The notes under the pieces were generated by a model. The model was not told where the DNA came from. It worked only from the letters and a program-made list of their open reading frames with translations, and did no database searches. From a virus (lineage: Duplodnaviria > Caudoviricetes), in IMG/VR virus record IMGVR_UViG_3300036952_000026, positions 1,547 to 65,546 of that record: a DNA stretch of 64,000 nt, one strand, 5' to 3'. A program made the translations under genes and the position numbers. Positions 4,989-33,011 of this stretch are shown piece after piece; position 1 is the first letter of the stretch; every line of letters starts with the position of its first letter.

Positions 4989-7736
4989 CTATTCCTCACC
5001 GTTCATGGCTCGGTCCAGTGTGGATACTGACACACCCAACGCTGCTGCTACCTGCTGCCTCGTGTACTTACCAGATGCAAGCATGGACTCAGCCCTTGCT
5101 GCCTTGGTGTTGGACATCAGTCGCTTAGGCTTTGGTGTAGCCAGCTTCTTGACCTTGTCAATGTCCGTGTGTTTGAGGATGTCCTTGAGCCTGGCATTAC
5201 TAACAGCACCAGCCTGGATAGCTTCCCACTCACGATCACTGATCTCGATCATTGTCTTACCTGCACCAGTACGCTTACGTGCCAGCTCTAGGTGGCGGAA
5301 CTCAATGCGCTGAAGGTGTTCTCTATCAAGGTTCTTGTTGGACTGTTTGATAGCCCGAACCTGGGCACCGGCGATTACCTGGGCGGCTCGCTCACGAGGG
5401 GCGTTAAGCTGGGCGGTGTGCAACTTAGACGCCAACGATTCCACCTCACCAGCATACACCTTCTTGGCATGGCTGGATTGGGTAAGGTTGGGGGTCTTAG
5501 ATGCCTCGAGCCTAGCCTTGTTGGCCATACCCTTGAACTTGTTCGAATGATCTGCATACAACTTCTCAATGGGGTGCTTAGTAGAGAGGGTGTGTGCATC
5601 ATCCGTGTTAGCCAGACGCTTAACTTCAATCGTCTTAGGAACCACAGTACCATCACGACTGGTCCTTGTCTTACCCGTAGGTACGTACACAAGAGCGCCG
5701 GTCTTCGGATCGATAGGGCCGCCATCCTTAGCAGGCCGCAGCTTGCGATCAGGAATCCGTTCCTTAGCACCAGCCCTAGAGATCAGGGTAGATGCACCAC
5801 GACTATCAGGGTTAGAGGGATCGAACTGGAACTCATCCTTCAAAGCCTGAATACCAAAGTCCTTCTTGGCCTGCTTGTAATCAAGGTGGTGCTTCTCTGC
5901 ATCGATCGTCACCATCGAATACTTAACAGCCCGAAGAATCTTGTCATCAGACGCACCACGAATGGTCATGTCAGTAATGAGGTTTGAGGCCTCACCCATG
6001 ATTCGACCAGTCGTAGCAGAAGGATCCTTGTGATCCCTAATGCCAGGGGCATCATCTGCCAGCTTGTACAGACGCTTAGGTTCGAACCCCTTAAGTCCTT
6101 CAAGCATTGGCTTAGAGCGCAGCTTTCCAGAGTTGTTGGGAATCACGATGACCGTATCGCCATCGAAGTCCGCACCAGAAAGACGTTCAGCCACATCGGG
6201 GTGAATACCGATAGCATCAATCGAATCTAGACCAATCATCTTTCGTGCAGCACGATGTGCGTTGTTCACCACGAGTTCAGGAATCTCAAACGGCCCGCCA
6301 TGGGGATACCGAATGAGCGCAACCCTTGTGCCGTCTGCGTAACCAGGAGCAAACACTTCTGTCGGCTTCATCTTGTCAACTGGAAGGATTACGTGCCAAG
6401 CACTATCCTTGGTCAACGACACAGCATTGAGATGCACAGCGGCGTTATCGGTCTCACCAGCAAACGCCTCAAGCAACTTCTTCTTAACCGTAGGGTTGGT
6501 AAGACCCTTGATCTCATCGAACTCTTTCTGTCGCTTGTCTTGCGTCTTAGCCAGTTGCTCTCGAACAAGAGCGCCACTCTGCTTTGACAAGACCTGCGTA
6601 GAGATCGACTTTGACCAATCCTTCCATGCGCCTTCACCATTGACGATGTTCATCGCCGAGATGTTGACTTCGTTCTCTTCGCCGGTATTCTTGGTGATCT
6701 GTCGAACTACGGCGCCGAAAGGGAGTTCGCTGTCCTTCTTGATCTCCTTCATTGCCCCGAGCTTACCGTTCTCGAGAACCTTAGGATCGGTCTTACTCTT
6801 GTTGGTATTGAACTCGAGATCCACACCAGCAGGAAGATCGTCCTTGTAAATCGCCATACCCTTGAGGTAATGACCATCACCGACCTGGATTCGAACCTGC
6901 GCATACCGGTTCTCACCGAGCGACAGATCCTTTGCGCCGGGACGGACATAGATCACACCATCAGCCTTCGTTCCACCTTCTTCGGCATAACGAACCTTGA
7001 CCCGCTTGGGGTCCACAGGAATTGGGTCGTGCTTCTTCGACCACTTCTTACCACCATCAATGGAGAAACGATCGAGTTGCTGAACCTCATAGCGATTCAT
7101 GAAGAGATCGTGCTGTGTCGTACCAGGAGGACACAACACCTTGAGTTCGGTCTCATGCTTGGTACCGAGCTGAGGGATCTTCACCTTTTCAACGACGTAT
7201 CCCTGCTGCTTCAAGACATCAACGGAAGCGCGAAGCTTTTCCTTACTGATGCCGAGATGGTTCTCCACACCCTCACCGATGTCGATGTACTGCTTGCGAT
7301 CGACTTCATCCTTGAGCATGTTGGCTGTACCGATGAGAGAAGAGGCCTTCTCTGCGGCATCGGGTGCCAAGAGGGTACGTACGGTAGACTCTTTGGTCTT
7401 GGATCCGTACATTTGCAGAGCAATCTCACTATTGGACATTCCCTTGTCCTTGAGTTTCCTTGCGGTGTGGATCTGCTCTTGCTTTGCCGCATTACGTTCG
7501 ATGGTCATCCGGGCACGGAACTCTCCGCTCTTCATGCCCATGCCTTCGTAGATCTGCTTGTCGGTGAGGTTGTTTGGTGGCCTACGACATTCCTTCACCA
7601 GATCTAGCCACGTGAGGTTTCTCTGATTCATGTAGGACTGATGGTCCCCACCACTACCCCATGGGTAACGGCCCGACTTACGAGGCGTCCCGTAGTGCTT
7701 GATCTCTTCTGCTTTGAATACCACCACAGGGTTCAC
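4989..7736 (-). CDS. single-subunit double-psi-beta-barrel RNA polymerase (YonO/QDE-1-like superfamily) with N- and C-terminal HTH motifs
   Basis: Catalytic LSGADFDGD (DFDGD at 6156-6170) preceded by VALIRYPH; first-barrel motifs ADGVIYVR and QVRI..YLKGMA; HTHs KGMSNSEIALQM and YTRQQVAAALGVSVSTL. Confidence 0.82.
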   Translation of the reverse strand: MNPVVVFKAEEIKHYGTPRKSGRYPWGSGGDHQSYMNQRNLTWLDLVKECRRPPNNLTDKQIYEGMGMKSGEFRARMTIERNAAKQEQIHTARKLKDKGMSNSEIALQMYGSKTKESTVRTLLAPDAAEKASSLIGTANMLKDEVDRKQYIDIGEGVENHLGISKEKLRASVDVLKQQGYVVEKVKIPQLGTKHETELKVLCPPGTTQHDLFMNRYEVQQLDRFSIDGGKKWSKKHDPIPVDPKRVKVRYAEEGGTKADGVIYVRPGAKDLSLGENRYAQVRIQVGDGHYLKGMAIYKDDLPAGVDLEFNTNKSKTDPKVLENGKLGAMKEIKKDSELPFGAVVRQITKNTGEENEVNISAMNIVNGEGAWKDWSKSISTQVLSKQSGALVREQLAKTQDKRQKEFDEIKGLTNPTVKKKLLEAFAGETDNAAVHLNAVSLTKDSAWHVILPVDKMKPTEVFAPGYADGTRVALIRYPHGGPFEIPELVVNNAHRAARKMIGLDSIDAIGIHPDVAERLSGADFDGDTVIVIPNNSGKLRSKPMLEGLKGFEPKRLYKLADDAPGIRDHKDPSATTGRIMGEASNLITDMTIRGASDDKILRAVKYSMVTIDAEKHHLDYKQAKKDFGIQALKDEFQFDPSNPDSRGASTLISRAGAKERIPDRKLRPAKDGGPIDPKTGALVYVPTGKTRTSRDGTVVPKTIEVKRLANTDDAHTLSTKHPIEKLYADHSNKFKGMANKARLEASKTPNLTQSSHAKKVYAGEVESLASKLHTAQLNAPRERAAQVIAGAQVRAIKQSNKNLDREHLQRIEFRHLELARKRTGAGKTMIEISDREWEAIQAGAVSNARLKDILKHTDIDKVKKLATPKPKRLMSNTKAARAESMLASGKYTRQQVAAALGVSVSTLDRAMNGEE

Positions 7737-8281
7737 CCCCTCAGGGACTCGACGTAGTTATCGAACTCGACGATCTTCAGCATGATTGCTGCAACGTCGT
7801 CTGGGTTTGCGTCATCTTCCAGTTTGGCATCCCTTTGATAGATGGCGACATGGATGTTGATTGTGTGAGGGTCGATCTGATACTCGAGACAGAACAGTGC
7901 GGCGTAAACCATCAACTGCTCCAGCTTAGCCGGGGTGATGCCCGTTTTCAGATCGTGGATGATGAGATTCTCTCCATCAAAGCAGATCGTGTCTGCTGAG
8001 CCGAAGCAATTCTCGGAATAGACGAGCGTTTGCTCGCACACCATCCCAAGGTTAATCGCATCTGAGACATACGCGGCCAGAGCCTGATTGTCACTATCCA
8101 GTTTGATCCCCAAGCGAATCGCCTCATGGGCAAGTGCGTGGAGATCGGTTCCCCTTTTCGCAGCCTTCCAACTATGGAAGCGCGTTTCCAGCTGCTGATA
8201 GTCATACCTCAACCAGCTCGATTTACTCGGACTGAGGAAGGCGTGTTTATCGCGCAGAGCATAGTGCTCGTTGAATTCCAT
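7733..8281 (-). CDS. PD-(D/E)XK (Cas4-like) exonuclease
   Basis: HAFLSPS, GTDLH, EQTLVYS..FGSADTI..IHDLKTG..QLMVYA motifs; start trimmed to MEFNEH. Confidence 0.8.
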   Translation of the reverse strand: MEFNEHYALRDKHAFLSPSKSSWLRYDYQQLETRFHSWKAAKRGTDLHALAHEAIRLGIKLDSDNQALAAYVSDAINLGMVCEQTLVYSENCFGSADTICFDGENLIIHDLKTGITPAKLEQLMVYAALFCLEYQIDPHTINIHVAIYQRDAKLEDDANPDDVAAIMLKIVEFDNYVESLRG

Positions 8282-8552
8282 GAAGAACCTCGATTTCGTT
8301 TTCTGGAAAGATGAAAGCGGCATAGTGCATGTCGTCAAACATCTCGATGTAGTAGTCCTGATTCGGGCGGTGGCTTGCGTCCCATGACGCTTTCACCTCT
8401 AGCATTACCCAATAAGGACCGTACAAGACGATCAAGTCAGGGATGCCCTGTATCTCGTCGGGGTTGTTCTTCATCACGAATGAACCAGGCAGAACGCGCT
8501 GGATTTCGTCGATGAGGTAGTTCTGGTAACGGGTTTCGGCTTTTGTCGTCAT
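8247..8552 (-). CDS. VRR-NUC / Holliday junction resolvase-like nuclease
   Basis: GIPDLIVL..LEVKAS..RPNQ motif. Confidence 0.8.
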   Translation of the reverse strand: MTTKAETRYQNYLIDEIQRVLPGSFVMKNNPDEIQGIPDLIVLYGPYWVMLEVKASWDASHRPNQDYYIEMFDDMHYAAFIFPENEIEVLHGIQRALCSAR

Positions 8553-19928: not shown

Positions 19929-20037
19929 GGGTTTCTCCTGTTGTGGGGTTCTCATTACACGCGTTGTAAAACTTGCGAGAAGCCTACACCGCATGTGGGG
20001 GCATGGGTGTAGGGTGGAACTTCACCTGACGGGATAG

Positions 20038-20199
20038 TCAGGCTCGTCGGAACGAGCGCACGAGGTTCGCGAGGCCATCGAGCACGTCCCGGAGGGCGTT
20101 GCCCACGGCGCGGAAGATGGACTTCACGCCGAGGACGGCAGCCAGGAACGTGGCGATGACGATCACGGCCAGCGTGAGCATGATTGCGATGATGAGCAT
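20038..20199 (-). CDS. cassette gene, 53-aa membrane protein MLIIAIMLTLAV...
   Basis: Promoter motif and SD. Confidence 0.75.
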   Translation of the reverse strand: MLIIAIMLTLAVIVIATFLAAVLGVKSIFRAVGNALRDVLDGLANLVRSFRRA

Positions 20200-20325
20200 G
20201 GGTTTCTCCTGATGTGGGGTTGGGTTCTCATTACACCCCATGTAAATGCTGCGACAGGCTTACACCCCGTGTATTGCGGGGGCTTGGGCCCGAGTTCACT
20301 GCTCCGTGCAGCGAGCTCATGTTGT

Positions 20326-20487
20326 TTACGGGTTGTCGTGCGACTCCTTGAGCTCTTCTTCGAATCTCCACAACCCTTCACAGAAATCGCACCACCGATC
20401 AACGGCGGCACTGATGTAGCGTTGGGCAATGAAGAACAGCGGAAATAGCACAATGAATCTGACCACGACGAATGCCGTGTGCAGCAT
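20326..20487 (-). CDS. cassette gene, 53-aa membrane protein MLHTAFVVVRF...
   Basis: Promoter motif and SD. Confidence 0.7.
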   Translation of the reverse strand: MLHTAFVVVRFIVLFPLFFIAQRYISAAVDRWCDFCEGLWRFEEELKESHDNP

Positions 20488-20579
20488 GTTGCTCCTGGGT
20501 GGTTGGATGTTCTCATTACATCCGTTGTAGGGGTTGCGGAACGACATAGATGCCTTGTGGGGCACCCAGAGGTCGTGGA

Positions 20580-20738
20580 TCAACGGCGGTAGTAGGTCCG
20601 CGGGGGTCCGTAGTTGCGCTGGACACCCAGGCGCTTCTCGGCGTACCGGTTGATCAGTCGCGTCAGGGTTCTGACGGTCTTGATGATCTGGTACATCAGG
20701 AAGGCGCGGGTGACGAACGAGCAAAAGCGGTTCTTCAT
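20580..20738 (-). CDS. cassette gene, 52-aa basic protein MKNRFCSF...
   Basis: Promoter motif and SD. Confidence 0.7.
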   Translation of the reverse strand: MKNRFCSFVTRAFLMYQIIKTVRTLTRLINRYAEKRLGVQRNYGPPRTYYRR

Positions 20739-20824
20739 GGGTTTTCTCCTGTGGTTGATTCTCATTACACCCCTTGTAGAGAATGCGAAAGAGAGATGCC
20801 TTGTATGGCAGAGCTCCCATTGCA

Positions 20825-21001
20825 CTAGCTGACGGGGGTCAGGTGGGGTGGATCGGTCTGGTCGTCCTCGGTCTTCTTGAGGCCCAGCGGGTCGTTCATG
20901 TACGTCGCGTAGAACCAGGCAGCGAGGGTGCTGCCGGTCAACACGCCGATCGTGAACAACACGATGGCTCGGTAGAATGCGAGGGCGGTCTTCTGGATCA
21001 T
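20825..21001 (-). CDS. cassette gene, 58-aa membrane protein MIQKTALAFY...
   Basis: Promoter motif, AGGAGG SD, hand translation. Confidence 0.7.
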   Translation of the reverse strand: MIQKTALAFYRAIVLFTIGVLTGSTLAAWFYATYMNDPLGLKKTEDDQTDPPHLTPVS

Positions 21002-21087
21002 GATTCCTCCTAAGAATCAGTTAATGTCATTATACCCTATGTAAACCGTGCGAAAGAGAGATGCTTTGCAGCAGAGCTCTCCTTCGA

Positions 21088-21300
21088 TTACTTCTTCTCG
21101 AAGGTGAAGGACACGACCTTCTGGTCGGCGTCGAACGTGGTGGTCAGCTTGACGATGCCGAACGCCGGGACGATGTTGTTCCGCACAGCGAGGATCAAGA
21201 GCTCCTCATTGAGGGTCTTGGGCCGGTGTGCGAGAATGTCGTCGTGGGCGCCCAGCTCGAAAAGAGTGGACTTCTGGGATTCGATCAGACGAAGGGCCAT
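21088..21300 (-). CDS. cassette gene, 70-aa protein MALRLIESQ...
   Basis: Promoter motif and SD. Confidence 0.75.
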   Translation of the reverse strand: MALRLIESQKSTLFELGAHDDILAHRPKTLNEELLILAVRNNIVPAFGIVKLTTTFDADQKVVSFTFEKK

Positions 21301-21386
21301 TGTTTCTTCTCCTTGATTGGGTTCTCATTAAGAGCCGTGTATAACCCGCGAAACAGAGATGCCTTGTGGGGCAGAGCTCCGTTCGA

Positions 21387-21599
21387 TCAGTACGGGCCGT
21401 TGGCTCGCATGTGGTCGACGATCGTGCTGGTGAGGCCCATCTCTTCCACGGCGGCCTCCACCTGGTGGAACTTCTCACGCTCGAACATCAGGAAGAACAG
21501 CGCGAGGCTGGTTCCTGAGATCAAGACGTAGGTCGTTCCCTGGTAGAGGTCGGCGCGGTTGTCTGGGTTGTTGTACCAGCGTCGGATCTTCTTCAACAT
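21387..21599 (-). CDS. cassette gene, 70-aa membrane protein MLKKIRRWY...
   Basis: Promoter motif and SD. Confidence 0.75.
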   Translation of the reverse strand: MLKKIRRWYNNPDNRADLYQGTTYVLISGTSLALFFLMFEREKFHQVEAAVEEMGLTSTIVDHMRANGPY

Positions 21600-21689
21600 G
21601 GGTTTCTCCTTGGGTTGAACTTCTCATTAGAGGCATTGTAGAGAATGCGAAAGAGAGATGCCTTGTGGGGCAGAGCTCCCGTTGAAGGG

Positions 21690-21917
21690 CTACTTCAACA
21701 CGGTGAACGGGGTGTCCTGGGGGACGATGAGGCGCAGCTCCATCAGGTCCTGGTGCTTGCGGCAGAGGTGCTTGGCGCCGACGGGCCAGACCACCACGAT
21801 CACCTGATCCCGGGCGTTGAGGCCGAGGTTGGTGATGCGGTAGTCGTTCCCGCCGAGCTGCACGAACTGGTTGAGCTTCAGGTCGATGGCGTTGAGGGTC
21901 TTCGTCTTCTTGGGCAT
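21690..21917 (-). CDS. cassette gene, 75-aa beta-rich protein MPKKTKTLNA...
   Basis: Promoter motif and SD. Confidence 0.75.
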   Translation of the reverse strand: MPKKTKTLNAIDLKLNQFVQLGGNDYRITNLGLNARDQVIVVVWPVGAKHLCRKHQDLMELRLIVPQDTPFTVLK

Positions 21918-22002
21918 GGAGTTCTCCTTGTTGTTGTCTCCATTACATCCCTTGTAGGAAATGCGAAACAGAGATGCCTTGTAGGCAGAGCTCCGTCTGG
22001 AA

Positions 22003-22245
22003 TCACTTCCAGAATTGCCAGAACTTCTTCTTGCGAGGTTCGGACTTCGACCAGGTGGCCAGGTCTTGGGCGACGAGGCGCATCTCAGCGATGGACTCCG
22101 CCAGGTCTCGGTGGGCATCGAGGATCTCTCCGCGGGTGAGCGGGTTGACATCGACGCTTCCGAGGCGCTGGTTGAGGTCCTTCAACTTGTCTGCGTATCG
22201 CCGAAGCTGGTCGCGGCCGTAATCCATCTCGAATTGACGGTTCAT
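22003..22245 (-). CDS. cassette gene, 80-aa coiled-coil protein ending KKKFWQFWK
   Basis: Promoter motif and SD. Confidence 0.75.
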   Translation of the reverse strand: MNRQFEMDYGRDQLRRYADKLKDLNQRLGSVDVNPLTRGEILDAHRDLAESIAEMRLVAQDLATWSKSEPRKKKFWQFWK

Positions 22246-22331
22246 GGTGTCTCCTGTGGTTGGTTCTCATTACACGCGTTGTACCTCATGCGACAAAGAG
22301 AGATGCTTTGCAGCAGAGCTCCCCTGGTGAA

Positions 22332-22493
22332 CTACCAGTTGTTCTTCATGTAGCGAAGCAGGGACGTCTCGCCGGTCCGCGCCTCGACCACCTGGGGCCA
22401 GATCTGTCGCGCCCGCCGCAGGTTGCGGGGGAACGAGAACAGGCCTTCGATGATGAGGGCGAGGACGACGAATCGCCCGATGAGCTTGAGCAT
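22332..22493 (-). CDS. cassette gene, 53-aa protein MLKLIGRFVVLAL...
   Basis: Promoter motif, SD, hand translation. Confidence 0.7.
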   Translation of the reverse strand: MLKLIGRFVVLALIIEGLFSFPRNLRRARQIWPQVVEARTGETSLLRYMKNNW

Positions 22494-22584
22494 GGTTTCT
22501 TCTCCTGGTTGATGGTTCTCATTATGAGGCGTGTAATCTATGCGAAAGAGAGATGCCTTGTGGGCAGAGCTCCCTTGGAACGGA

Positions 22585-22776
22585 CTAGAGGGACTGGCCG
22601 AACGTGATTCGCTTCAGGCGGATCAGGAACGCCACCGGCGCCAGGGCCACCGGGTACAGGTACAGCTTGTACGGGTTGGTCTCGAAGGACTTGGCCTCGT
22701 TCTTGATGTACAGGTACTGGGTGACGATGGTGTAGGGGGCGAGGATGATCTCACCGATCAAGCGGATGATCAGCAT
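22585..22776 (-). CDS. cassette gene, 63-aa hydrophobic protein MLIIRLIGEI...
   Basis: Promoter motif and SD. Confidence 0.7.
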   Translation of the reverse strand: MLIIRLIGEIILAPYTIVTQYLYIKNEAKSFETNPYKLYLYPVALAPVAFLIRLKRITFGQSL

Positions 22777-22877
22777 GGGTTTCTCCTTGTTGTGGGTTCT
22801 CATTATGAGACGTGCAGGATATGCGACAAAAGGAAAGGCGTTGTCTAAGCCCCGTGTGGGGGCGTAGACGTCGGGAA

Positions 22878-22991
22878 CTACCAGTGGTAGTTCGGTCGGA
22901 CGAGGTCGTTGTCCACCGAGTACTCGCGGGCCCGGTCGCTGCCGAAGCAGGTTCCGAACGCGTAGTACAGGGCGGTGACGATCTTCATCAT
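22878..22991 (-). CDS. cassette gene, 37-aa peptide MMKIVTALYY...
   Basis: Promoter motif, SD, hand translation. Confidence 0.65.
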   Translation of the reverse strand: MMKIVTALYYAFGTCFGSDRAREYSVDNDLVRPNYHW

Positions 22992-23081
22992 GACTTCTTC
23001 TCCTGGGGGTTGGTTCTCATTACAACCACTGTAGGATATGCGAAGACCGTTGTACCTTGTGGGGTACGCTGGCCTCGAGGG

Positions 23082-23231
23082 TCACTCGGGGTAGATCTTC
23101 TTCAGGGTCTCGCTGTGCTTGTCGTAGATGTCGCTGTTCAGCCGCTCCCCCAACTCGTGGGCCTTGAGGCCGTATGAGTCGAGAGCGCTGGCGAACGACG
23201 AGATGATGCGGACGTACATGATGCGGATCAT
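23082..23231 (-). CDS. cassette gene, 49-aa protein MIRIMYVRII...
   Basis: Promoter motif, SD, hand translation. Confidence 0.65.
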   Translation of the reverse strand: MIRIMYVRIISSFASALDSYGLKAHELGERLNSDIYDKHSETLKKIYPE

Positions 23232-23330
23232 GGGTTGAATCTCCTGTTGTTGGTTCTCATAATAAGGGCTGTAAATCGTGCGAGAAAATACAAGACCATT
23301 GTGCCTTGTAGGGCACGCCGGCCTTGGACA

Positions 23331-23370
23331 TCAGCCTCGGGGCTGGGTCACGTCGATCTCGATCGATCAT
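23331..23370 (-). pseudogene. collapsed cassette gene relic
   Basis: ATG ATC G joined out of frame to ATC GAG ATC GAC GTG ACC CAG CCC CGA GGC TGA, between an intact promoter and hairpin. Confidence 0.5.
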
Positions 23371-23479
23371 GATTTCTTCTCCTGGTGGTTGGATGTTCTC
23401 ATTATGACCCTTGCAGATTATGCGAAAGCGATAACCCTTGCCCCATGCGCGAGGCACGGGGGTTGGGTTGGTTGAGGGA

Positions 23480-23614
23480 CTACTGGGGGTCGGCTCCGAA
23501 GAGCATCATCACGAGGCCGATCACGGTCAGCACCATCCAGAGCCCGAACAAGCCGGCGAGCAGCTTGAGGGTGTTGGTGGCGATGAAACGGACGGCGTTG
23601 TTGATGGCGGTCAT
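23480..23614 (-). CDS. cassette gene, 44-aa membrane protein MTAINNAVRF...
   Basis: Promoter motif, SD, hand translation. Confidence 0.7.
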   Translation of the reverse strand: MTAINNAVRFIATNTLKLLAGLFGLWMVLTVIGLVMMLFGADPQ

Positions 23615-23657
23615 GGGTTTCTCCTGGTGTAGGGTTCTCATTATTAGGGCTGTAATT

Positions 23658-23801
23658 CCTGCGAGAACAAAAGGAAAATACGTGTAGGAACAACGAGCGG
23701 GGCCAGAATAGAGGCTTACGAGTGATCAACTCGCAATCTCTAAACCGGCCCCGCCGTCTGTCAGAGGACTACCTCCTCGCTATCACCCCGGGGGATGACC
23801 C
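23658..23801 (-). repeat. structured element copy 1 (conserved 53+61 nt flanking a variable 30-nt hairpin)
   Basis: Near-identical to 24304-24438; GCGGGGCC/GGCCCCGC stem. Confidence 0.85.
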
Positions 23802-23837
23802 ATGTACCATGCACGAGGCATAGTACTGGGGTCTGGG

Positions 23838-23966
23838 TTACTTGTAGGTGTGGTGCATCTTGAGGATGAACACCGCAACCGCGAAGAGGTCCAGCAGGAT
23901 GTAGGCGAAGAATCGCCGACGGTCCGTATGGAACATCTTGAGGTTGGGGATGATCATGAACAGCAT
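23838..23966 (-). CDS. cassette gene, 42-aa membrane protein MLFMIIPNLK...
   Basis: Promoter motif, AGGAGGT SD, hand translation. Confidence 0.65.
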   Translation of the reverse strand: MLFMIIPNLKMFHTDRRRFFAYILLDLFAVAVFILKMHHTYK

Positions 23967-24050
23967 GATTGATACCTCCTAGTATCTCATTACAAGGCCT
24001 GTAATTCCTGCGAGAAACAGAGGTGCCTTGTAGGCAGAGCTCCGTCGGAA

Positions 24051-24260
24051 CTAGTCCTGGATCTTGCATTCGCTGATGTAGTTGATCTGGTCCTGGATCT
24101 TCGCGATCGTCAGCGTGAGGTCGTTCATGATCGACCCGCAGATCTCCTCCAAGGAACGGTCATCGTAGTCGATGAACATCTTGGCGAGGTCCGCGTAGTC
24201 GGCCTTGTACTTGTCACGAAGGGTCACGAGTTGATCTCGGATGGTCTTGTAATCAGGCAT
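24051..24260 (-). CDS. cassette gene, 69-aa coiled-coil protein MPDYKTIRD...
   Basis: Promoter motif and SD. Confidence 0.75.
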   Translation of the reverse strand: MPDYKTIRDQLVTLRDKYKADYADLAKMFIDYDDRSLEEICGSIMNDLTLTIAKIQDQINYISECKIQD

Positions 24261-24303
24261 GGGTTTCTCCTGGGGGTTGGTTCTCATTACAACCGCTGCA
24301 GAT

Positions 24304-24438
24304 CCTGCGAGAACAAAAGGAAAATACGTGTAGGAACAACGAGCGGGGCCAGAATAACAAGTGTGGACACCACCTGTTAAACCGGCCCCGCCGTCTGTCA
24401 GCGGACTACCTCCTCGCTATCACCCCGGGGGATGACCC
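24304..24438 (-). repeat. structured element copy 2 (variable 21-nt hairpin)
   Basis: One mismatch to copy 1 across 114 conserved nt. Confidence 0.85.
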
Positions 24439-27039: not shown

Positions 27040-27127
27040 TGGGTTTTCTCCTTGTTGTGTGTGAGACGTTAAGAGAACTGTAGTATGGCGTCCTCATCAG
27101 CTAGGCTGATAAGGTACTACAGTATCT

Positions 27128-27155
27128 CTCATTATGAGGGTTGTAGATCTTGCGA
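27128..27155 (-). promoter_or_regulatory. phage promoter motif with structured 5' leader
   Basis: TCGCA-AGATC-TACA-ACCCTCA-TAATGAG. Confidence 0.85.
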
Positions 27156-27156
27156 G

Positions 27157-30100
27157 CTACCGCACGGTCTTGAACGCGGCGGTCGCGTCATCATGGTTGA
27201 ACCAGTGACGTACGGACTCCTGGGCCCGCTGTCGATCCCAACCCCAGGCGAGGAGCTGCATGTACCACTGCTTGGCGTTCATTCCTGGTTCTCCTTGTTG
27301 TGTTCGATCTCGAACGACACCTGAACGTGCTGTCCGATCTTGTGGGTTCCTGCCGGGGCCGCGAACGTGAACTTCTGCGCGCTCCCCCAGCGGGTGCTGT
27401 TGGAGTTGCAGATCACGAACTCGGTGTTCTCGTCGGGGTGCTTCTTGAGGAGCGTCACGGTCAGTTGCGTGATCGCCGGAGCGGGTGCTTCTGGGGGCAT
27501 TTTTCCTCCTGGTTTCTTGGGTAGGTGAACCGTCGGATTACGGTCACCATTTGATGAAAGGTAAAGCAGAATCCGGATGCGTAGTTTCCATCGACCGACC
27601 AGTGCCAGCCGTACCAGGTCTTGCGCATCCAGACTCGCTTACCCGTCGAGGCCGGCATCCGGTCGTTTGTGATCGACCGCTCGCAGTTCACCCGAGGATG
27701 GAGAGCGAGGAGTCGTTCGGGGGGCAGTCACATGCGTACCAGTCGCCTCGGCAACGGTTGCAACGGTACGAGCCATCCCTGAGCTGCGTCGCCTCATCTT
27801 CTGTCGGAACTGGACAGCCTTCCATTGCTCCTCCTGGTTGCGGATATAGTCGCTGACGACGGGTGCGACCAACGCGGTAAGCACGAAGAACACCGTCGCG
27901 ACTTGGAACAGGAACCGAACCACGAGCCAGAAGCCCGTGTGGTAGTCCTGCCCAAGGGTGAACCCCGTGGCAAACACCAGGAAGATCACCCACTTGAAAC
28001 GCTTGTCTTGATTCATATGGCGAAAGCCTTTCCGTCCATCTTGATTGTTCTTCCTGTGACCCACCGAAGGCCCTCGCACTGACGACAGACCAACTCCACG
28101 GGAGTATCGAGTCGTAGCGAAGAGCTTCGGATGGAGACGTCTTCCTCTTCTTGGTAGTGACCACATTCCTGGAACTCGAATATGACGGAAGTACGAATCT
28201 TCTCGTCGTCCTCGAGCACCCGATGATCACCGTAATCCACGACGGCTACCATCCGAATATGACCATCCCGATGTAGTTGAAGAACCTGCGTAGCCGCCTC
28301 ATCCGAAGTTCCGGTAGAGGAGGTACGTGATTCCCAACAAGAAGAAGCCGAACGCGAGTCCGATTGCCAACACTGAGTAGAAGATCACCGCCGGGGCTTC
28401 ATCGACCCAGCTCGTCATCTGCTCGTAGAGACTGAGCTCTTCCTCGGGTGCCAGGGCTTCGGCCATTCGTCGGCGATCTTCCGCGGCAACGACCTGGTCC
28501 CAGTTCACCTTGCTCCAGTCGACCTCGTCCAACCAGCTGATGGCGGCTTGATCGATTGGGGTGTTCTCGATGCCCTCGCCGTCACACCAGAAGACCTGGT
28601 CGGCATGGGTGTAGTCGTGGGGTGGATGATCCTCGCCATCGAGAGCGAGATCGCACGGGGTGCTAGTGGTCCATCGGGCCATGTTTTCTTCTCCTGTTGT
28701 TGGGGCTTAGAAAGCCCAGTCCCACACGGCGTCAACCGCTGCGAACATGAGGATGCAGAAGATCACGAAGATCGCAATCCAGAACACGCATCCGAAGCAG
28801 CCGACTTCCTTGGTTTGGGTTGTTGCCATCAGTAGTTCTCCCATCCGTTGTTCCACATCTCCGTCTTGATGGCGAGGATGTCGTCTTGGTTGTGGTAGTT
28901 GCAGTCCTGAGCGATCTCAAGGGATCCTTGTCCCTGCTTGAGGCCTCTCTGGATCCTGGTCTTCTCGAGGTCCTTCCGAACCCGGTCGGTCCAGTCGATG
29001 ATGCGCTGGCCATACACACGGAGGATGATCAGCTTCCAGACCACCTGCCAGATGACACAGCCGATGATGACGCCAAGAAGGACGGTCTTCATCGGTTCGC
29101 CACCCGGCTCTTGTGCGCGATCTTGCCGCGACGACGGTTGCGCTCCTTGCGCTTGGCCGGCGGGGACTGTGTGGGCTTCCACTCCCAGCGGTCGCGCATG
29201 ACCGTTCCGTCCGCCTTGTGACGGGTGCGCCACTGCCAGAACTTCTTCTGCCGGCGGTTCTCGGCTCGCCGCTCGGCCCGGTTGGGCTCACGGTAAGCAG
29301 GACGAAGATCGAGGTCCGGGTTGGTGTCCTTGGTGATCGTCTTGCCGAGCATGTGCTTGAAGGGATTTTCCATGTTCTTCTCCTGTTGTTGGGTGAATTA
29401 CTTCTTGAAGATGTGCTTCAACGGCTTGATCTCGATCTGCGTCGAGCCTCCGGAAACGATCGACAGAGCGACCGCGGCAGTGAGGACGTAGCCAACGTAT
29501 CGGGTGACCTTGAGCGCGGCTCGAGCCGCAGTGGAATTACGCATCGACATCGATGTCTCCGTTCAGTTCTCTGGCGGTCTCCAGACGCTCACCAACGGCT
29601 TGCATCATGAAGTTGAACTCGCTGCCGATCCGGCGGACGACCTCTTCTGGCACGAGATCGGGATCGTCAACGATGTCAGAACACGCTTCCGCGCAGTTCT
29701 GCGTGACCGTGAGCACCTCTGCGACGAGGTGCGCGTTCTTCTCGGCGACCTTGTTGGCCTGCCGGAGCTTGATCACAGCAACCGTGGTGCTCACGGCCTG
29801 CATGGCCACCGAACCCAAGGCGACTTCTCGCCAAGGCACCACGTTGAGATTGATTCTCTTCATTCGTTTCTCCTTTGTTGGAATATGAGCGGCATACGTT
29901 CGCCCCAGGTATGCCAGCCGGGTAGGAGGGTGCAGGTCTCAGCCGGAGCCCACACCAGCGATCAGCCAGCGTTGAACGATGCGAGAACAACGCCGGGTGG
30001 GACCTTGCCCGTGGGCACGCCAAGCTTGAGGCAAGTCGTCTGGGTTCGGTCCAAGAACTCGGGGTTGAGGGCCCGAGTGCTGTCTTCTTCTCCACCCCAT

Positions 30101-30727: not shown

Positions 30728-30858
30728 TCTTGTTTCTCCTGTTGTTGGGTTGTGTTGGTATTACATTTGAGGACCCGTAGGGACACCTAATCCCCTCTTC
30801 CACGACTTCACAGGGAGCGGTCGCAGGCGTGCTTAAAGGCTATACACTAGGGGTCCAG

Positions 30859-31308
30859 TGGAGGTGGGGGGAATCGAACCCCCGTCCACGATGGCTTTCT
30901 GTACACACATCTACATGGTAGCTGGTTTGATGAGCCAGCACTCGGGGCCAAACCGGGTAGGGTTTGACGCTCCACCACTCAGTCTTTCCTGAGAGTCAAT
31001 GTTTTAGCCAGTGTTGCTGTTTCAAACCCGCTGGCAGGTCATGCGAGCAGTCTGACTAGGTCAGACGGCGACCGAAGCATCGGCGAAGAACGCCTCAGCC
31101 TCAGCGTCGAAGTTAGCCATGGCGTCAGCCACAACCAGATCCTCGACAGCAGCCTCGAAGGCTGCATCATTCGCAACGGCAACGTGATCGTTGGCGTTTA
31201 ATGGTTGAAGTAGCTGTTGTTTAGGCCGAAGCCAACCAGTCTGCCACTTCCTAACTGGTCATGCAGTGCGTACGTACTCGTTCCACCATGTCGAAACCGG
31301 TCACCCCC
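30859..31308 (-). ncRNA. ssrA: phage-encoded tmRNA (450 nt), tag ORF 31061-31195
   Basis: 5' GGGGGTGACCGGTTTCGAC; 3' GGACGGGGGTTCGATTCCCCCCACCTCCA; 7-bp acceptor stem with G3.U and A discriminator; ATTAAAC precedes the GCC resume codon. Confidence 0.95.
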
Positions 31309-31351
31309 TGGGGCGGTCTCCATTTAAGGATAGAGACCAACTCCTCACTTC

Positions 31352-32848: not shown

Positions 32849-32944
32849 GTTTTCTTCTCCTGGGTTGAAAATGGAAATGAGAAGTACCAAGCAAAGTTAG
32901 TGGGAAGCTAACTAATATTGGGGTCAAGATATTGCTATCTCCTT

Positions 32945-32972
32945 CTCATTAAAGGGCTTGTAAATCTTGCGA
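32945..32972 (-). promoter_or_regulatory. phage promoter motif with structured 5' leader
   Basis: TCGCA-AGATT-TACA-AGCCCTT-TAATGAG. Confidence 0.85.
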
Positions 32973-33011
32973 GCCCTGGCCAGCCGAACTGAATACCAGG
33001 GCCCACGAGAT

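Follow-up and report, generated by a model that had tools for sequence, protein, structure and literature searches.

A phage tmRNA with a predicted 44-residue tag that ends in a peptide core of phages of mycobacteria and their relatives

Why would a bacteriophage bring its own ribosome-rescue RNA, and what is the role of the odd tag that such an RNA encodes? Phage tmRNAs have reportedly been listed ever since the Bxz1 genome, and to our knowledge nobody knows the answer to either question. We analyzed a locus that raises both in a 64,000-nucleotide stretch of viral DNA (the window), which makes up nearly all of the 65,546-bp IMG/VR virus record IMGVR_UViG_3300036952_000026, rated complete by CheckV. 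A preliminary description made from the sequence had placed a phage tmRNA at 30859-31308 and read from it an unusually long acidic tag.

A search with Rfam recovered this RNA on the minus strand as a match to RF00023, scoring 89.9 bits against a cut-off of 47 (E 1.3e-33) with full-length coverage of the model, and tmRNA was the sole RNA family above threshold in the window. The parts of the RNA on which the argument rests are as follows.

30856-31308, minus strand: one-piece tmRNA gene (Rfam RF00023, 89.9 bits, model positions 1-374)
31207-31259, minus strand: pseudoknot PK1 (Rfam structure line and pairing read from the sequence)
31196-31200, minus strand: frame-setting pentanucleotide UAAAC, with U at -5 and A at -4 (sequence)
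31047-31069, minus strand: hairpin containing the UGA stop 31061-31063, at the helix 5 position (inverted repeat I6)
30859-30885, minus strand: 3' half of the tRNA-like domain, with T-arm, 3' acceptor strand and discriminator A (maximum Rfam posterior probability; G3.U70 read from the sequence)

The tRNA-like domain is intact, as first described: the acceptor stem is paired at 7/7 positions, the T-arm is canonical and the G3.U70 pair required by alanyl-tRNA synthetase is present. The discriminator A at 30859 and the lack of an encoded CCA, both noted earlier, also hold, the genome continuing with CUG; the mature RNA probably runs from 31308 to 30859, with CCA added post-transcriptionally. PK1 is an H-type pseudoknot of two interleaved 6-7-bp stems with an additional UUCG-capped hairpin within its last loop, and its end lies 11 nt from the resume codon. 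Positions -5 (U) and -4 (A) are the counterparts of U85 and A86 in the E. coli RNA, where A86 contributes most to the choice of frame (PMC2481249). Mycobacteriales tmRNAs carry UUAAGC before their GCC, nearly matching the UAAAC context of the window. The I6 hairpin has arms of 10 nt that are 90% complementary and a loop of 3 nt; from helix 5 to PK4, in the middle of the RNA, posterior probability in the Rfam alignment is low. The folding energy of the RNA gave an MFE z-score of -5.3 compared with shuffles. In its score, its tRNA-Ala-like domain, its PK1 with U-5/A-4 ahead of a GCN codon and its stop near helix 5 the RNA is a member of RF00023, and we regard 30856-31308 as almost certainly a genuine tmRNA.

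Of the two programs that the preliminary description had named as ways to check the gene, only Rfam found it; ARAGORN reported nothing in the window, and at any sensible threshold found nothing at the tmRNA. We shortened the tag in silico, solely to diagnose this behavior. With 38 codons or fewer ARAGORN calls the tmRNA, and with 33 or fewer it gives the same GCC resume codon in the same frame, so the miss is due to size limits set inside the program and not to any fault in the gene. As an independent heuristic, ARAGORN thereby agrees with GCC 31195 as the resume site. Two further full-length phage tmRNAs, L019:1890-2249 and L021:3815-4174, are likewise absent from ARAGORN calls; their open tag frames of ~35 residues, ending LAAA, are consistent with the length limit. 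ARAGORN is the standard annotator of actinophage genomes, it cannot report tags above 33 codons and it misses some shorter members of the family described below as well. Counts of such tmRNA genes are consequently too low, and at least one stands in the databases as a hypothetical protein.

The phage itself belongs with siphoviruses of actinobacteria, as evidenced by matches of its terminase, portal, capsid protease, tape measure, fused primase-polymerase and helicase. The nearest matches are Deejayvirinae phages of Gordonia such as Gravy and Tanis (terminase 78% identity, polymerase 56%), and the host is probably a member of the Mycobacteriales or a neighboring group. The tmRNA gene is placed in the stretch of small, unshared genes from 11 to 35 kb, and ARAGORN found no tRNA genes in the window or the 65.5-kb record. 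Elsewhere in the genome, a 915-residue ORF at 4989-7736 on the minus strand matches phrog_4291 with 1138.7 bits and is 44% identical to Gravy gp92; the phrog label is RNA-dependent RNA polymerase, and a single-subunit phage RNA polymerase of unusual type is the more likely identity.

No sister copy of the RNA was found in the collections searched. A blastn search with the tmRNA against 50,697 phage records and a tblastn search with the tag both gave nothing. There is no tmRNA in 40 IMG/VR records of polymerase relatives, eight of them at least 92% complete, nor in Gordonia phage Gravy or Streptomyces phage ClubPenguin, and the 213-residue ORF upstream has no relative in IMG/VR. A 30-mer from the 3' end was tried as a marker of relationship and set aside as uninformative, being common to many phyla. 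As possible donors, 401 genomes from a single actinobacterial class were compared; they matched only the tmRNA ends, and the sampled genomes held no close copy of the window RNA. We also scanned metagenomes and genomes for the tag motif: tmRNA ends lie beside the motif in none of the 240 matches listed, and among these, five motif loci checked with Rfam contain no tmRNA. In Verrucomicrobia and other bacteria (L251, L343, L358, L205, L336), DAExEAFFA does recur, as the last part of long open frames rich in Gly, Asp and Ala. The composition of these frames (first-position GC ~0.8) points to shadow frames on the strand opposite a conserved gene, not to tags, and the recurring Verrucomicrobia matches were rejected as tags because they look like shadow ORFs.

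What the RNA encodes is the unusual part, and two features describe it.

31064-31195, minus strand: tag reading frame, 44 sense codons from GCC, peptide P0001 (Rfam alignment, translation, codon periodicity, ARAGORN on the shortened tag)
31064-31108, minus strand: conserved actinophage tag core, residues 30-44, DAEAEAFFA plus six residues ending VAV (family HMM, Bxz1 match)

The GCC at 31195, earlier proposed as the resume codon, aligns with the consensus resume codon at high posterior probability, and translation of 31061-31195 on the minus strand returned the identical 44-residue peptide, followed by UGA at 31061-31063. The observation that this tag is far longer than typical stands, published tmRNA tags ranging from 8-35 residues (PMC8012679). 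It is also acidic, with a net charge of -10, and ends in SVAV and not in (L)AA, both as described; with this C-terminus it does not have the (L/V)AA-COOH of a ClpXP-type signal. Alanine makes up 36% of the peptide, together with Val, Asp, Glu and four Phe. An open 44-codon frame occurs in 1009 of 5000 dinucleotide shuffles (~20%), and openness by itself is not beyond chance. The codons of the frame are strongly periodic: position 1 is G in 33 of 44, position 2 is G in none and position 3 is A in one, with G-first codons numbering 16 of 22 in codons 1-22 and 17 of 22 in codons 23-44. The tag starts with the usual Ala-Asn-Asp, and the core motif and the stop fall in the very frame that the tmRNA consensus dictates. 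Taken together, it is very probable that the 44-residue frame is used as read.

In an alignment-free AlphaFold prediction, residues 2-43 form a single helix (pLDDT 91), which for an Ala-rich peptide is weak evidence of a long single helix. The tag has no match in Pfam, the ESM Atlas or PDB sequences. An internal duplication was considered and rejected: the 48-nt-spaced repeat is equalled in 956 of 2000 codon shuffles, and the first half of the tag has no match to the family profile. Likeness to the Mpa-binding helix of Pup was likewise only an idea and found no support.

The preliminary description had likened DAExEAFFA to the tag of mycobacteriophage Bxz1, and the likeness is real: 8 of 9 residues are identical to the Bxz1 tag as read by ARAGORN, a match equalled by 13 of 20,000 composition-preserving shuffles. 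A BLASTP comparison of the two tags was not significant after composition adjustment. The same core occurs in the tmRNAs of Nappy and Settecandela and of four IMG/VR contigs, three of them with tRNA arrays. From the core-bearing phage tags and the tag of Wildcat we built a family HMM, which matches residues 31-44 of the window tag with 14.9 bits, a score reached by 2 of 1000 shuffles; the match of residues 1-23 to the family profile is equalled by 136 of 1000 shuffles and is not significant. Like the family, the window tag has AE-x-EAF(F)A followed by 5-8 residues that end in Leu or Val, then the stop. It departs from the family in length, 44 residues against 25-28 with an A-x-D-x-D-A-T/L-V N-terminal part, and in its genome of 65.5 kb without tRNA genes, the family setting being in or beside a tRNA array of a genome above 130 kb.

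The core is conserved at the level of the peptide. The Ala codon after the second Glu varies among members (GCG, GCC, GCT, GCA), and 4 of the 8 residue-identical codons differ between the window and Bxz1, in the third base only. These synonymous changes argue for selection on the peptide, not on the RNA sequence, and the tag has probably been selected as a peptide. On comparison of the sequences, its last 14-15 residues are the conserved core of a tag family specific to phages of mycobacteria and their relatives. What seems new in this copy is the ~29 additional residues before the core, for which comparative support is absent.

As in the cluster C mycobacteriophages Bxz1 and Nappy (Bixzunavirus), the tmRNA of the window is of one piece, lacks an encoded CCA and belongs to a phage without SmpB; the tags are likewise acidic, start with Ala-x-Asp and carry DAExEAFFA a few residues ahead of a hydrophobic end. 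The Bxz1 and Nappy tags are of 25 residues, however, and their genes lie in tRNA arrays of 154-160-kb myoviruses. In Settecandela (Phrappuccinovirus) and the four contigs (L723, L747, L764, L774) the core is present as FAEIEAFAN in tags of 26-28 residues, one of which ends LVAV, resembling the SVAV of the window. The tmRNAs of Settecandela, L723 and L747 are missed by ARAGORN like that of the window. L747, L764 and L774 lie in tRNA arrays, and Settecandela and the L723 contig measure 136-145 kb. The tmRNA of Settecandela (L512:401-811; MT114163.1 ~8127-8537; Rfam 66.8 bits) is unannotated, and its CDS gp9 (L512 429-584), deposited as a hypothetical protein, runs in the tag frame and shares the stop of the tag. 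Wildcat also carries a phage-borne tmRNA with an acidic tag containing aromatics; unlike the window, its tag has 22 residues, no EAF(F)A core and an Ala-Ala end. Host-type tmRNAs of Mycobacteriales (Gordonia, Mycolicibacterium, Rhodococcus), with the tag ADSNQRDYALAA, have the architecture found in the window but a 12-residue ALAA tag and a much higher Rfam score. Across 102 tmRNAs of Gordonia, Mycolicibacterium, Rhodococcus, Corynebacterium and others, the tags have 12-13 residues and all end in YALAA.

Outside its ends and the tag, the window RNA is only ~50% identical to phage and host tmRNAs, and its descent can be read in more than one way. Settecandela, the four contigs and Bxz1 form a well-supported clade (98/99) that the window does not clearly join. 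In a maximum likelihood tree with the tag columns it does join this clade (90/90); without them the tree does not settle its place, on a branch of 2.2 changes per site, and an AU test does not reject the clade (p 0.41), the branch length overall being 1.25-2.2 changes per site. The likeness may reflect shared descent, recombination of a tag module or convergence.

In the vicinity of the gene, no promoter or terminator consensus adjoining the tmRNA was found on its own strand. The closest candidate is the following.

32944-32974, minus strand: nearest copy of the promoter-like motif, family D1 (84% identical to the reference; 15 copies)

This copy lies 1.6 kb upstream of the tmRNA, and a transcript from it may run through three small ORFs into the tmRNA, which would then be cut out. 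The 31-nt promoter-like motif, TCGCA, a spacer and then TAATGAGA, occurs 15 times on the minus strand (19950-24312, 27127-27157 and 32944-32974), mostly before tiny ORFs. Separately, 7 nt upstream of the 5' end of the tmRNA, a hairpin of 6 bp with an AU-rich loop of 12 nt (31309-31345, minus strand) has no second copy in the window and could be a processing or transcription signal. As for partners, the earlier statement that no smpB is encoded extends to the whole 65.5-kb record; SmpB is missing from Settecandela and Nappy as well, and ClpP from the phage record. No ORF of the window is shared with Bxz1, Wildcat or Settecandela yet missing from Gravy. With no phage-encoded candidate, any reader of the tag would therefore be a host factor. 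The tmRNA of Wildcat is the highest-expressed lytic gene of that phage (PMC7474061), which indicates that phage tmRNA genes are used.

The explanation that we favor, as somewhat better than even, is a working phage tmRNA, served by the host, whose 44-residue tag has the actinophage core in place of the host ending. From the anatomy of the RNA and its relatives we infer that it is expressed and relies on host SmpB. During infection the RNA would be charged by host alanyl-tRNA synthetase and carried by host SmpB and EF-Tu to ribosomes halted on broken mRNAs. Taking up translation again at GCC 31195, these would add the charged Ala and 44 residues in the form of an Ala/Val/Asp/Glu-rich helix of charge -10 that ends in the conserved core. 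As the core would stand where the host tag has its ...YALAA ClpX-type end, rescued products may be treated differently, being spared, staying soluble or going to a different host factor. The additional capacity would free ribosomes when cleavage of mRNA or tRNA multiplies non-stop complexes, whether by host shut-off or by toxin-antitoxin or abortive-infection nucleases. That tagged proteins meet a fate other than that given by the host tag is possible, and we place it somewhat short of even. A missing LAA is not proof of stability, since the C-terminus is small and nonpolar and VAV could be a degron.

This last point opens the most direct alternative, that the tag is an ordinary degron whose SVAV end is recognized by ClpXP, FtsH, Lon or a tail-specific protease, with the long acidic part as a spacer or adaptor site and the phage simply adding rescue-and-destroy capacity. 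All family members have small or hydrophobic C-terminal residues, the last two of Wildcat being Ala, and in E. coli, ssrA variants with AAV, ASV or LVA as their end slow degradation down without abolishing it. Against it, the invariant ...YALAA of the host clade (102 tmRNAs) is found in no core-bearing phage tag, and selection has acted on an acidic-aromatic core of 9 residues for which a ClpX-type signal has no use; we consider the degron reading unlikely. Alternatively, translation may resume elsewhere, or the core alone may matter, so that the real tag has ~20-25 residues and the first half is an untranslated stretch open by chance. The tags of relatives do have 22-28 residues, residues 1-23 have no match to the family profile and one shuffle in five leaves such a frame open. 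Yet no site other than GCC 31195 has both U-5/A-4 and a PK1 11 nt ahead of it, the internal Ala codons lacking this context, and the G-first periodicity is equal in the two halves (16/22 and 17/22) of a frame with the usual Ala-Asn-Asp start, which makes a shorter tag decidedly improbable.

Two further readings deny the tag any part. The RNA could act mainly as a decoy, titrating SmpB or AlaRS of the host and switching off its trans-translation. Phage molecules of about the tRNA-like domain only do exist, in DS6A and as 79-82-nt copies in IMG/VR, inhibition by such molecules has been reported for the DS6A type (PMC4131195), and the phage has no SmpB. These IMG/VR copies (L004:6064-6142, L006:107-185 and L018:3630-3711) match only both ends of the tmRNA model, with 65-76 bits, and by this pattern appear to be tRNA-like-domain-only molecules like that of DS6A; a Pistol ribozyme (L018:5916-6012, 50.7 bits) lies 2 kb from one of them. 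For a decoy, however, PK1, the resume context and an open frame whose core is conserved as a peptide would all be superfluous, and we hold this reading to be very unlikely. Least credible is that a captured tmRNA has lost its function and survives as a decaying relic. The very long branch (1.25-2.2 changes per site), an Rfam score well under the 140-166 bits of bacterial tmRNAs and the status of sole copy among the relatives searched would fit decay, but the functionally critical elements are all intact, the core and stop of the tag are kept, and expressed phage tmRNAs score similarly (window 89.9 bits, Wildcat 84.9, Bxz1 73.9).

Overall, the working, host-served tmRNA is our preferred reading, and with 44 residues its tag is a length record past the textbook 8-35. 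The locus shows that a tmRNA can be carried by a small siphovirus that has no tRNA genes. The 9-residue acidic-aromatic core is preserved, through synonymous codon changes, in phage lineages with hardly anything else in common, which makes it a well-defined peptide for experiments. It is conceivable, if unlikely, that the core DAExEAF(F)A...(L/V)V serves Mycobacteriales phages as a portable signal, placed on every rescued polypeptide, that engages a specific host factor. If this were true, the factor would be an adaptor, a chaperone or a non-Clp protease, the phages would reprogram host protein quality control, and the doubled length of the tag would represent a second, lineage-specific binding helix.
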